From the NCBI GenBank assembly GCA_965223905.1, contig CBDCXV010000001.1, positions 736,001-800,000 of the forward strand: DNA of 64,000 nt, in the 5' to 3' direction. This document shows, one piece after another, positions 6,848 through 10,541 of the stretch. The notes beneath the pieces were generated by a model. The model did no database searches. It had not been told where the DNA came from and was given only the letters and a program-made list of their open reading frames with translations. This stretch comes from Candidatus Latescibacterota bacterium (lineage in GTDB: Bacteria; Latescibacterota; UBA2968; UBA8231). The stretch's first letter is position 1. Each line of letters begins with the position of its first letter. A program made the position numbers and the translations under genes.

Positions 6848-6967
6848 ACGGCGCCGGGAAACGAGCCGGCGCTCTTGGTTTTTCGTGAACTCAATCCCCT
6901 TCTGCGCGATGGAGTACCACCTGCCGGCAGGTTGTTTCGGGGGAAGTCGGGGCGCAAATTCCCGGGT

Positions 6968-7807
6968 ATGAGCGATCGCTCTGAAACGAGCTGGATTCCC
7001 GCGATACCCGACGTCGATTCGGTGTTCGCACAGTACCCCGATCCGTTGCGCGCCCTGTCGGAAGCGGAGATTCCCGCCATCCTGCTGCCCCGGGTTTATC
7101 CCCGGGAGGAGTGCGACGGTCTGATCGGGCGATTCGTCGAGCGCAACCTGATGAAGGACCCGGACGATTTCCGGCCGGGGGACCGGACGCGCATCGACAT
7201 CGGCACCAGCCTCGGCACCAGGGGCAACGACCGCGAAGGGTTCCTCGCCAGCTCCGCGGCCACCCACGAGCTGTTCTCCACCCTGTTCGACGGCTTCGAT
7301 AACCCGGTACAGCTGATTTACGACTACCTGCAACGGCTCGGCCGCGGCAAGAAGGTGATGACTGCCCGGGAGCCGGACGGGAGGCGCTACGGGCCGGCGA
7401 TCTTCCGCATTCATTACGAATCGCACAGCTACAAACCCCACATCGATCACGTCACCCTGCGTGAAAAGCGGTTCGACTACGCCGTTACCCGCTTCGAGCA
7501 CCAGTTCGCCGGCGTGCTCTGCCTGCAGAATGCGACGCGCGCTGCGCAAACCACTCAGGCGCTGCTGCACCGCTGCCTATGGAGCGAGGAGGTGCAGCCG
7601 CACATCGAGCAGGGAACCTTCCCCGAGTACGCCGCCGCCCACCGGGTGCAGAACTACCGGGTCGATCTCGGTGCGGGAGACCTGTACTTCTTCAACACCC
7701 GCTGCATCCACGAGGTCCCGCACGTGGTCGGCAGCGACCCGCGCATCGTCCTCGCCGTGTTCATCGGCTACTCCCCGGACGATCCCGAGATCTTCGTCTG
7801 GTCCTAG
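6968..7807 (+). CDS. 2OG-Fe(II) dioxygenase-like protein
   Basis: HxD (PHIDH) ... GDLYFFN ... IHEV ... R motif pattern; start uncertain. Confidence 0.75.
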   Translation: MSDRSETSWIPAIPDVDSVFAQYPDPLRALSEAEIPAILLPRVYPREECDGLIGRFVERNLMKDPDDFRPGDRTRIDIGTSLGTRGNDREGFLASSAATHELFSTLFDGFDNPVQLIYDYLQRLGRGKKVMTAREPDGRRYGPAIFRIHYESHSYKPHIDHVTLREKRFDYAVTRFEHQFAGVLCLQNATRAAQTTQALLHRCLWSEEVQPHIEQGTFPEYAAAHRVQNYRVDLGAGDLYFFNTRCIHEVPHVVGSDPRIVLAVFIGYSPDDPEIFVWS

Positions 7808-8058
7808 CCCAACGGGGCCAATCCCGGCGCCCCGGCGGCGGAAGTCCGGCATGCCATTTCTGGGACAGAACGCCCGTCGTTGTCTTCTAAGCCCCATAAA
7901 AAACAGCAGCTTGCGGTGCCCTTCCCGGCAACCCTCGGTAACGCCGCGACGGTTGCCGGGTGCGGAGAGGCTGCCTATCTTTGGTGACTCTCGAACGCTT
8001 GGCCGCGGGCAGATAGCCTTGGTGCGAGCGCTCCACACATGACGGAGAACAGGTTCCG

Positions 8059-8469
8059 ATGCCCAATTTCAGCGTCGAAATTCATAACGACGAGCATTTC
8101 GAGAAGGCACTGCGGCGCTTTACGGTCAAGACCAAGAAGTGCGGCCTGATGCGCGATCTGAAGCGCAAACGGTACTACACCAAACCGTCGGTGCAGAAGA
8201 AGATCGATCGCCAGAAGAGCATCAGGAGGCAGAAGAAGGCCGAAAGGTTGGCTGAGCTGGCAGCCGCCGGGATCGACCGCCGCAGCATGCGGGGCGGCCG
8301 GGGCGGCCGGGGAAGAGGCCGCGGCGGTTATGGCAGTGGCGGCGGCGGCGGCGGTTATGGCAGTGGCGGCGGCGGCGGCGGTTATGGCAGTGGCGGCGGC
8401 GGCGGCGGTTATGGCAGTGGCGGCGGCGGCGGCGGTTATGGCAGTGGCGGCGGCGGCGGCGGTCGTTAG
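8059..8469 (+). CDS. rpsU: 30S ribosomal protein bS21 with Gly/Tyr-rich C-terminal extension
   Basis: FEKALRRF...K.G...LKRKRYYTKPSVQKK bS21 signature; RBS GGAGA. Confidence 0.9.
   Translation: MPNFSVEIHNDEHFEKALRRFTVKTKKCGLMRDLKRKRYYTKPSVQKKIDRQKSIRRQKKAERLAELAAAGIDRRSMRGGRGGRGRGRGGYGSGGGGGGYGSGGGGGGYGSGGGGGGYGSGGGGGGYGSGGGGGGR
8326..8460 (+). repeat. Exact 27-bp tandem repeat x5 (GGTTATGGCAGTGGCGGCGGCGGCGGC) encoding GYGSGGGGG
   Basis: Units start at 8326, 8353, 8380, 8407, 8434. Confidence 0.97.
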
Positions 8470-9581
8470 GCCGGCTCACCGCTGATCAGGGACATCAACT
8501 CCACCCCGATAAACCGGTCCCGCCAGCCGCGCAGCAGCGCGTGCCGTTCTCCAGTCGCCTGCTCCCCGTCCCTGACCAGCGCCCTTACTTCCGAGCGCGT
8601 CGCCACCAGCGCATGATCGATCCCCTTGTCGGCGCTCCGCTGTTCCAGCAGCTCGATCGCCGCCTTGCTGCGCGCGGCGAAGGTTTTTTCGTAACGCGAC
8701 CGCGAATGCCCGCAGGGCAGTTCTTCCTCCGGAATCTCCAGTCCCACCTTCACTGCGTCGACAACGGCTGTTCCGTAGCGGCGCAGGCGTTTGTCCCTGA
8801 ACCGCAACAGTTCCTCGGTGCCGGCCGGCTTGCACTGCGCCAGCAGTAGCAGCATCCGGTCGGACATCACCCATCCTCGCGGCCGGTTGACGGCCCGCGC
8901 CTCGCACTCCCTCCAGGCAGTCAGCTCCCGCAGGATCGCCAGCTCTCGGCGCGTCAGCCGCCCCCGCCCCTTGATCCGCTCGAACTGACCGCGGGGCTCG
9001 CGTTCCTCGTAAAGGCTCTCGTCGTCGAGGGCCGCCATATCCTCGCCCATCCAGCTCTCGACGCCGCGCTCCCGCGCCCGGCGCAGGAGCTCCCGGTGCG
9101 CCGCGTGCAGAAAACGCACATCGTCGAGGGCGTAGCCGATCTGGGTTTCGCTCAGCGGTCGGCGCAGCCAGTCGGTCCGCGTCTCGGTCTTGTGCAGGTC
9201 GACCTCGACCAGCTCGACGAGCAGGTCGCGCAGTGAGATCGTCGAGGAGAGGCCGGCGAAACCCGCGGCGATGCGGGTGTCGAAGATGTTGCGCGGCGAC
9301 ACGCCGCCGGCGCGCCTGAGTATCGACAGGTCCTGGACGGCGTCGTGCAGGATTTTCGTGACCTTCGCCTCCTCCAGCAGCTGGCCGAGGACAGCGAGGT
9401 CGACGGCGGTGGCGTCGATCAGGTGAAGGTCGCTGTCCGAAAGGGCGAGTTGAACGATTCCGAGGTAGGGGTAGTAGGTGCGTTCCCAGACCAGCTCGGT
9501 GTCGAGCGCGACCAAGGGTTGCCTCCCGGCACGATCGACGAGTGCCGCCAGCTCCGCTTGCGAATCGATGAGCGCTGACAA
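8466..9581 (-). CDS. rnd: Ribonuclease D (DEDDy exonuclease + HRDC)
   Basis: ALDTE, KILHDAVQDL, IFDTRIAA, TDWLRRPLSETQIGYALDDV, HRDC domain, GWR near C-terminus; TTG start. Confidence 0.92.
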   Translation of the reverse strand: MSALIDSQAELAALVDRAGRQPLVALDTELVWERTYYPYLGIVQLALSDSDLHLIDATAVDLAVLGQLLEEAKVTKILHDAVQDLSILRRAGGVSPRNIFDTRIAAGFAGLSSTISLRDLLVELVEVDLHKTETRTDWLRRPLSETQIGYALDDVRFLHAAHRELLRRARERGVESWMGEDMAALDDESLYEEREPRGQFERIKGRGRLTRRELAILRELTAWRECEARAVNRPRGWVMSDRMLLLLAQCKPAGTEELLRFRDKRLRRYGTAVVDAVKVGLEIPEEELPCGHSRSRYEKTFAARSKAAIELLEQRSADKGIDHALVATRSEVRALVRDGEQATGERHALLRGWRDRFIGVELMSLISGEPA

Positions 9582-9594
9582 CGCGAGGGGGCGG

Positions 9595-10437
9595 CTAGTT
9601 CGCTGTTTCCCGAAGCCGTCCCGCGTCGTCGAGCTCGGGACGGTTGAGGCGCCTGTGGTAGGGGGGCTCGAGAATCGCCCGCTGTTCCGGTGTCATTCCC
9701 TCCAGCATCTGCTCGGGCCAGGGCATGTACCCCGTCGCGTAGGCGAGGTTGGCGGGGGTGTAGCGGTACAAAAGGGAGCGGCGTTCGCGCTCGGAGCGCC
9801 AAGGCAGGGTGCCGTGGGTCACCGCCTCGGTGAAGATGACGGCGTCGCCGGCGCGGCAGGTGATCGGGCGCACGATCTCCCGCCGACGGTGCCACAGCTT
9901 GATCGGCCGCGGGCAGGCGAAGTTGGCCTTGTGACTGCCGGGGATGAGGCAGAGTCCGCCGTCCCCTTCCTCGACGTCCGACAGCTGCCAGGCAACGACC
10001 GTCAGACCGTTGTGCATCTGCCCGTCGCGGTAGACGTAGTACTGATTGGGGTCGAAGTGCGGGCCGGAGGAACCGTGCAGGCTGTGCCCCTCGGCTCCCT
10101 TGCGCATGGTGATGAGGCCGGGGCTGTGATCCATGCGGAACCCGGGACCGACGATCTGGTTGAGATAAGGCACGATGCGAGGGTGGGACAGCATGTGGCG
10201 AAACACGTTGCGCCAGGGTTCCTCCCAGCCCAGCATGCCGCCGAGATCGCCGCGGCCCGTCGTTCCCTGGAGGCTCGTCGATTCACCCGACAGCGACAGG
10301 TCCTCGAGGCGGATGTTGACGGCGTCCGCGTGGTGGTCGATCGCGGCGTTGGCGGCGGCTACTTCGGCAGCGGTCAGCACCTGCTCCACTACGAGGTAGC
10401 CGTTGAGGTCGAACAGGTACAGCTCTTCTTCGTTCAC
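9595..10437 (-). CDS. Phytanoyl-CoA dioxygenase (PhyH) family protein
   Basis: YLFDLNGYLVV, LH, DGGLCLIPGSHK, AGDAVIFTEAVTHG, RRSLLYRY; GTG start inferred. Confidence 0.88.
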   Translation of the reverse strand: MNEEELYLFDLNGYLVVEQVLTAAEVAAANAAIDHHADAVNIRLEDLSLSGESTSLQGTTGRGDLGGMLGWEEPWRNVFRHMLSHPRIVPYLNQIVGPGFRMDHSPGLITMRKGAEGHSLHGSSGPHFDPNQYYVYRDGQMHNGLTVVAWQLSDVEEGDGGLCLIPGSHKANFACPRPIKLWHRRREIVRPITCRAGDAVIFTEAVTHGTLPWRSERERRSLLYRYTPANLAYATGYMPWPEQMLEGMTPEQRAILEPPYHRRLNRPELDDAGRLRETAN

Positions 10438-10541
10438 GGCGGCTCGGCTCCCGACCGACAAGATATCCCCCTGCCCTTCAGGCGGCCAGGGGAACCAGGC
10501 TGCCTTCCAGCCGTCGGATGAGGATTACGGAGGATGCTTCC

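Follow-up and report, generated by a model that had tools for sequence, protein, structure and literature searches.

A glycine-rich RGG/GYGSG repeat tail on ribosomal protein bS21 of a Candidatus Latescibacterota bacterium: one instance of a fast-changing, family-wide and apparently undescribed type of tail

The window, i.e., the whole stretch of 64,000 nucleotides that was analysed, carries at 8059..8469 on the forward strand the gene rpsU, which encodes ribosomal protein bS21 with a C-terminal extension (136 amino acids followed by a TAG stop, as given by the list of open reading frames (ORFs) and by Pfam and NCBIfam matches). The encoded protein begins with MPNFSVEI. It matches the Pfam family PF01165 (Ribosomal_S21) at residues 5-58 with 49.6 bits against a cut-off of 27, a domain that lies at 8071..8232 (+) and includes the KPS motif at residues 42-44, and it matches the NCBIfam equivalog model TIGR00030 with 42.7 bits against a cut-off of 28.95. 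Apart from Ribosomal_S21, no Pfam domain was found in the protein at E ≤ 1, RRM, cold-shock and Hfq domains being absent. A profile search of the whole 7.92-Mb, 11-contig genome returned PF01165 at one place, namely rpsU; this gene is thus the sole bS21 gene of the organism and, if the organism has bS21, must be its housekeeping copy. The 136-aa protein is without an exact match in a collection of 15 billion proteins.

Convergent to rpsU lies an RNase D-like gene (3'-5' exonuclease plus HRDC; 8466..9581, −; DNA_pol_A_exo1 with 105.8 bits, HRDC with 45.9 bits), whose TAA stop (8466-8468, −) overlaps the TAG stop of rpsU (8467-8469), leaving an intergenic space of zero, as is also the case in both congeners. 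This gene pair is flanked by a homologue of WelO5-like carrier-protein-independent halogenases/2OG oxygenases (6875-7807, +; 77.3 bits) and by a PhyH-family dioxygenase (9595-10461, −), and a PMT-type glycosyltransferase is also encoded nearby. None of these four neighbours, i.e., the PMT-type glycosyltransferase, the WelO5-like oxygenase, RNase D and the PhyH oxygenase, suggests a functional link to the bS21 extension. The rpsU leader contains at 7975-8017 a short inverted repeat (CTATCT … AGATAG), a candidate promoter or leader structure, which both congeners retain, one of them with a G-U-compatible change; a contig from an RNA library starts at 7996, within this leader.

The N-terminal part of the protein is that of an ordinary bS21. 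In an AlphaFold2 (AF2) model, run on a 25-sequence alignment, the core helices span residues 14-28, 30-38 and 43-69 with block pLDDT values of up to 95, and both the KPS/T motif (KPS, residues 42-44) and the helix hairpin of bS21 are present. The conserved linker RLAELAAAGIDRRSM (residues 63-77; 8245..8289, +) follows, comprising the end of the long helix and a short helix that is modelled at residues 74-78; this linker is common to the tailed relatives. The first-pass annotation had placed the RGG box directly behind a core of ~65 residues. The core is indeed there, but this estimate is slightly short, as the helical linker precedes the box.

The RGG box RGGRGGRGRGRG (residues 78-89; 8290..8325, +) is read from the translation, and its portion RGGRGRGRG is kept in both congeners. 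RGG/RG motifs, as Thandapani et al. are said to have defined them in 2013, consist of three RGG with short spacers (tri-RGG) or of repeated RG; RGGRGGRGRGRG together with the next G reads RGG-RGG-RGRG-RGG and is, thus, of the tri-RGG kind. The box is followed by GYGSGGGGG five times over (residues 90-134; 8326..8460, +), every copy being encoded by the same 27-bp unit, as is evident from letter identity and from Tandem Repeats Finder (TRF), and the frame closes with a terminal Gly-Arg and the TAG stop (8461..8469, +; TAG at 8467-8469), the latter being shared with both congeners. Perfect period-27 identity extends over 8321-8463, corresponding to 5.3 copies, while TRF reports a period of 27 with 5.4 copies, 99% matches and a score of 287. 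Five identical tandem 27-mers cannot have arisen by chance. That bS21 continues in frame into an RGG box and a GY-repeat tail, as the first-pass annotation had proposed, is borne out by the agreement of ORF list, Pfam, NCBIfam and translation.

The resulting tail of 59 residues contains 43 G, 6 R, 5 Y and 5 S (73% Gly; no Q or N) and constitutes a terminal low-complexity tract on a ribosomal protein. From residue 82 on, the AF2 model has pLDDT values below 50 and no secondary structure, and the tail is accordingly predicted to be intrinsically disordered. FUS-like prion-like domains are long S/Y/G/Q-rich tracts with many [G/S]Y[G/S] motifs; with five GYGS motifs in 45 residues and zero Q or N, the repeat array does not belong to this class.

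Contigs from four runs were aligned to the rpsU region: three runs from three studies, whose library type is not recorded, and one RNA-library run. Contigs from the three studies reproduce both flanks of the array at 99% or better, and none of the aligned contigs spans 8322-8470, where the repeat is masked; five is the unit count as assembled. An assembly artefact, or a wrong copy number in the present genome, may accordingly be considered. For the tail as such, with five units as a provisional count, we regard this as highly improbable, since the congeners' independent assemblies and many metagenomic contigs carry homologous in-frame tails and the flanks themselves are so faithfully reproduced. 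The rupture of short-read assemblies at the rpsU array is, in any case, a caution for such assemblies and for annotation.

The tract stands alone in its genome, which has a G+C content of 63.8%. Among the stop-to-stop ORFs, 15 reach at least 17 Gly in a 30-residue window, and an RGG/GYG tract is found in bS21 only; two of the other Gly-rich ORFs are lipoprotein-like with Gly/Ser/Asp tracts, and the remainder have the look of repeated elements or of frames that do not code for protein. That several proteins of the genome share the tail as a module was accordingly rejected, with one of the 15 ORFs carrying such a tract. The two lipoprotein-like ORFs, at ~1367028 (−) of contig C11 and ~531325 (+) of contig C10, are paralogues with a signal-peptide-like start (MKKILIVLLAAVAIT…, then Cys) and Gly/Ser/Asp-rich C-terminal tracts. 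Two ORF-like elements are present in multiple copies, one of them reading PGGGG…VTGPPPS…GSTVTLKL (C11 ~59493 (+), C2 ~175607 (−), and C9 ~827066, ~907911 and ~490759 (−)) and the other GTKDPVYPGR… (C2 ~25237, C10 ~576437 and C11 ~2017963 (−)); both are probably repeated DNA in a non-coding frame. As a further observation, the genome contains two full-length recA genes (C9:611408-612181 and C10:1781527-1782300; 437 and 447 bits against PF00154).

An open frame across the array is weak evidence of translation, since GGC-rich repeats leave further frames open as well, and the alternative frames across this array are likewise open in the ORF list. More telling is the comparison within the genus. 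In both congeners, the tail remains in frame up to an identical TAG, the proteins of the genus measuring 97, 136 and 144 aa, and the length differences among the three are all multiples of 3. The post-linker tails comprise 20, 59 and 67 residues and are built from differing units: the 97-aa protein reads RGGRGRGRGGFGSGGGGRRY, and the 144-aa protein has an imperfect 24-bp array of GYGSGSGG units. The metagenomic protein P0001 equals the protein of congener G002 minus exactly 16 aa, i.e., two 8-aa units, and P0001-P0004, whose cores are 96-98% identical, are 104-128 aa long with Gly-rich tails that contain F or Y and end in RGR or RR. On the basis of these sequence comparisons, the bS21 tail is almost certainly translated. 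RNA-library contigs labelled as sponge metagenome cover 7996-8311 with zero differences and continue to 8321, thereby including the core and the greater part of the RGG box; as DNA can occur in such libraries, they hint only weakly at rpsU expression.

The first-pass annotation had interpreted the perfect repeats as a recent, length-variable expansion, and the tails of 20, 59 and 67 residues in the genus, the 16-aa difference between P0001 and the G002 protein, and near-perfect arrays in other genera all agree with this. It had also named a stop right after the core in relatives as an observation that would speak against a translated tail. Such a stop is not found in the genus or in 29 of the 72 family genomes, but many other members of the family do end at or near the core. 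Its two further proposals, that the tail may capture mRNA or drive condensates, are plausible in view of the tail's composition and of the location of the bS21 C-terminal part (PMC7797042).

It may further be asked whether the nucleic acid rather than the peptide is of relevance, with the (GGC)n-rich array serving as a structured 3' end or pause site between the convergent genes and the peptide being incidental. The overlapping stops of rpsU and the RNase D gene leave no room for a terminator, and the RNA of 8285-8500 folds at −116.2 kcal/mol compared with −104.9 ± 3.3 kcal/mol for shuffled sequences (z = −3.4; 0 of 200 as stable). GGC repeats, however, self-pair automatically; congener G001 has the same gene arrangement with the array almost absent, and the arrays of other genera differ in their unit, yet keep the Gly/Arg frame. 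Such a role at the level of DNA or RNA is, therefore, very unlikely.

Bacterial bS21 itself is widespread among the relatives. PF01165 was present in 41 of 41 genomes of a first set of relatives, and the present protein was matched in 160 genomes of a phylum sample of 168 species genomes from 14 families. The closest RecA and bS21 relatives bear mixed source labels, mostly those of Latescibacteria/Latescibacterota MAGs (82-83%), along with one SAR202 MAG (94%) and one Gemmatimonadetes MAG, so that the lineage is probably Latescibacterota-like. A pattern scan of genome contigs gave 596 matching stretches, with two confirmed loci, both distant (37-45% identity; one Chloroflexota and one Gemmatimonadota MAG). 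Among the matches listed in this phylum search, none from outside the organism's own family (f1) reaches beyond query residue 87, and an ORF-level check of three other families of the class found 0 of 16 genomes (18 ORFs) to be tailed, the longest extension having 9 residues and at most one Gly. Within the family, bS21 ORFs were taken from every genome with a match (72 genomes including the present one; 75 loci), and residues after core position 62 were counted as tail. At least 10 Gly are contained in the tails of 29 of the 72 genomes and at least 15 in those of 17, while 43 (about 60%) have fewer than 10.

The tail units in the family are genus-specific. Those of g1 are of the GYGSG(G/S)GGG type. 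In g14, where 21 of 30 genomes have at least 10 Gly, GGRG[A/T/P/V] pentapeptides occur two to eight times, along with fourfold GGRNA, fourfold RGGAGE and one GAGAGA run. A Lys/Arg-rich linker followed by GGFG-type repeats is typical of g2, g12, g15 and g17; the tails are short in g9 and g16; a basic end of 18 residues (…DRRGRKRR) is common to g6, g8 and g18; and g3, g4, g7 and g11 stop four residues past the core. Common to the tailed relatives are periodically placed Arg or aromatic residues and a basic C-terminus (RR, GR or PR). At the DNA level, 31 loci have detectable tandem arrays in the tail (period at least 9 bp), several of them perfect or nearly so, e.g., 15 bp × 4.9 at 100% in G144, 30 bp × 2.1 at 100% in G141, and 15 bp × 7.8 at 96% in G138. 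Because 43 of the 72 genomes have fewer than 10 Gly and four genera end at the core, the tail is evidently dispensable over evolutionary time. Three family members have two bS21 genes, namely G139 (L063, L105), G118 (L101, L102) and G021 (L028, L038); the two copies of G139 differ, RGGAGE repeats forming the tail of one and a short Lys/Arg stretch that of the other, so that its ribosomes may be heterogeneous.

Gly-rich tails are also found on bS21 proteins of other descent. Among 209 fetched proteins, 185 have a bS21 core, and a rule for Gly tails flagged 59, of which P0029, P0099, P0107 and P0142 are not truly Gly-rich. Outside the phylum, Gly-rich (GGFGG/GGYGG) tails occur on clearly different cores and linkers in the P0043/44/55/56/58/70/87/103/113/174/176 group, in P0045/P0074 and in P0079. 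As these cores and linkers are unrelated to those of the present lineage, the tails are probably of independent origin. Since the 209 proteins were gathered with a tailed query, they illustrate recurrence, not prevalence.

For the interpretation of the tail, the mode of translation initiation in the organism is of relevance. A GGAG at 8044..8047 (+), 11 nt upstream of the rpsU ATG, is by its sequence a possible, though weak, Shine-Dalgarno (SD) motif; located at −15, it falls on the shoulder of the genome-wide peak, and it is not kept in congener G001. In a set of 2720 crude ORFs, the frequency of SD-type tetramers is highest at −13 to −10, with 0.061-0.096 per ORF and position versus ~0.012 further upstream, and GGAGG/AGGAG is contained in 13.2% of upstream windows versus 3.7% at internal control codons. 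Given this peak and this upstream enrichment, the organism uses SD-anti-SD pairing. Its single 16S gene ends in …GGAUCACCUCCUUUCU with the canonical CCUCC anti-SD. Sequestration of the anti-SD as in Bacteroidetes was considered for the present bS21 and appears unlikely, given the position of the SD peak and the canonical CCUCC kept by the 16S rRNA.

We consider the rpsU tail to be a real and probably functional extension, and our preferred reading, to which we assign a probability of about one half, is that of an RNA-contacting arm at the mRNA exit, evolved by slippage on an otherwise normal core. On the 30S platform, the core would occupy its place at the 16S rRNA 3' end, and the 59-residue, presumably disordered extension would follow it; as rpsU is single, every bS21-containing ribosome should carry the tail. 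Replication slippage of GGC-rich short units would have given rise to the tail and would continue to change it. As extrapolated from the structures of other species, a positively charged Gly/aromatic arm would, thus, be tethered beside the mRNA exit and the anti-SD, where it may touch mRNA leaders or the SD-anti-SD helix weakly and without specificity and help to capture or hold either of them during initiation, its exact length and unit being only loosely constrained.

This reading appears to us the most likely one because the C-terminal part of bS21 is located at the 16S 3' tail and because RGG and Gly-aromatic tracts bind RNA, and it is from these parallels that we infer the step from a translated, disordered tail to an RNA arm aiding initiation. 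In the 70S ribosome of F. johnsoniae, the C-terminal part of bS21 contacts the 16S rRNA 3' tail, with Tyr54 stacking on A1534 (PMC7797042). According to a study of prokaryotic low-complexity regions, RGG/RG and YGG motifs confer RNA binding of degenerate specificity, and bacterial RNA-binding proteins are enriched in Arg-rich regions of this kind (PMC6821194). Against an arm, it has to be noted that unit sequence and length are poorly kept even within the genus, as would be expected under weak constraint.

As the main rival explanation, slippage at a solvent-facing C-terminus of bS21 might yield a near-neutral by-product, translated at little cost but devoid of a specific function. Within the genus, the type of unit and its copy number turn over very fast, the five units are perfectly identical and must therefore be very recent in origin, and slippage-prone GGC-rich DNA in a genome of 64% G+C offers the raw material; in line with this, GGC is given as the commonest Gly codon in prokaryotic low-complexity regions, with slippage as a proposed driver (PMC6821194). 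On the level of the family, the 43 of 72 genomes with fewer than 10 Gly and the several tail-less genera point in the same direction. However, the composition is not that of random Gly, an Arg or aromatic residue every 5-9 residues and a basic end being kept across genera despite differing DNA units, and similar tails recur on unrelated bS21 lineages. Slippage alone, moreover, does not scatter tails over the genome, bS21 being the only real ORF with such a tract, and bS21 is abundant, so that a useless addition of 59 aa would be costly. A functionless by-product is a possibility to be taken seriously, albeit one that we rate well below even odds.

Other RNA-binding proteins were surveyed in 76 genomes of the family. 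Hfq (PF17209) was found in none of them, while 5 of 14 control genomes gave a match in the same search. Of the 76, 58 encode RRM_1 proteins, including genomes of the tailed genera g1 and g14; these proteins are absent from the short-tailed g9 and most of g16. A trade-off with the tail standing in for Hfq or for a free, Gly-rich RRM protein was rejected, RRM_1 occurring in 58 of 76 genomes without complementarity and Hfq in 0 of 76; this lack of complementarity with RRM or Hfq removes one possible functional rationale.

The family's lack of Hfq (0 of 76) might be thought to favour a different role, in which RGG and [G/S]Y[G/S] motifs act as stickers that make every 30S subunit multivalent and drive ribosomes to condense with one another or with mRNA, e.g., for hibernation, storage or localised translation. 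The five GYGS motifs do adjoin a box of the tri-RGG type, the tail is predicted to be disordered by AF2, and it would be displayed on an abundant, surface-exposed particle. With 59 aa, 73% Gly, only 5 Tyr and no Q/N, it is short, however, and most tailed relatives (g14) have no aromatics in their repeats, so that we judge condensate formation to be quite improbable. Returning to the RNA-contacting arm, a bolder version combines both roles and is unlikely, too: in a lineage devoid of Hfq, the ribosome itself would carry an RNA-chaperone or sticker module, whose tail beside the anti-SD would turn each 30S subunit into a multivalent RNA binder of low specificity, recruit or remodel leaders and reversibly cluster ribosomes and mRNA, as a slippage-tuned "translation-initiation rheostat" that would have originated independently on bS21 in other phyla.

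No account of a bS21/S21 tail of the Gly-rich or RGG kind was found in a search of open-access papers and bioRxiv, supplements not included. The rpsU tail represents one instance of a fast-changing, family-wide type of Arg/Gly(/aromatic) tail that is apparently undescribed. Its interest is moderate and derives from the position of the tail on the ribosome and from the natural allelic series within the family. The selection of mRNA leaders takes place at the 3' end of 16S rRNA, which is also the site of bS21, and a disordered arm fixed there to each small subunit would offer a simple natural means of changing mRNA capture. As an allelic series, the family ranges from no tail over short basic tails to GGRGx, GGFG and GYGSG repeats of two to eight units, and it can be used to test the action of low-complexity RNA-binding tails in bacteria. 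Furthermore, tandem repeats appear to have evolved at the bS21 C-terminus independently in unrelated lineages, which marks this site as a hotspot of such evolution. Should the tail be merely tolerated, rpsU would still be a clean example of the fast turnover of a coding microsatellite in a gene of the essential machinery.

Compared with known systems, the protein is closest to canonical bS21 (PF01165, TIGR00030), with which it has in common the core, the KPS motif, the helical hairpin and the single gene; in bS21, it is the C-terminal part that touches the 16S 3' tail. A survey of bS21 takes the stretch past the KPS/T motif to be a short peptide (<40 residues; PMC7797042), whereas it comprises 92 residues in the present protein, 59 of which form the RGG/Gly-Tyr low-complexity tract. 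The bS21 of Bacteroidetes sequesters the anti-SD with its C-terminal part (PMC7797042), in contrast to the SD-using genome described here.

Low-complexity tracts at the termini of bacterial ribosomal proteins are common as such, with 822 counted in the set of one study; according to its main text, in which "S21" does not appear, they are mainly Ala/Glu/Lys-rich and affect S16, L3, L10, L19, L21 and others (PMC6821194). The bS21 tail, composed of Gly/Arg/Tyr, differs from these described regions. The domains of eukaryotic FUS/hnRNP proteins share its motif vocabulary, i.e., an RGG box beside GYGS repeats, but the bS21 tail is far shorter, 73% Gly, free of Gln/Asn and bacterial.

A bacterial RNA-binding core with a Gly-rich, variable tail is likewise known from Hfq of Acinetobacter, where the repeats are also Gly-aromatic, and of Burkholderia. 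In A. baumannii, the number of GGFGGQ repeats in Hfq affects RNA interaction and fitness (PMC11617691), and the Gly-rich tail of Burkholderia Hfq2 is more variable than the core (PMC7074383). In contrast to the bS21 tail, which ends basic, these Hfq tails have an acidic tip, no RGG box and an Sm core in front of them. Finally, glycine-rich RNA-binding proteins (plant GRPs, CIRBP, cyanobacterial Rbp) likewise combine a small RNA-binding core with a disordered RGG/Gly-aromatic tail, and the RRM proteins P0046-P0052 were retrieved in the sequence search through the tail alone. The likeness is limited to the tail, as the core is ribosomal instead of an RRM or cold-shock domain, and the tail is not carried by a free chaperone but is tethered to the 30S subunit.
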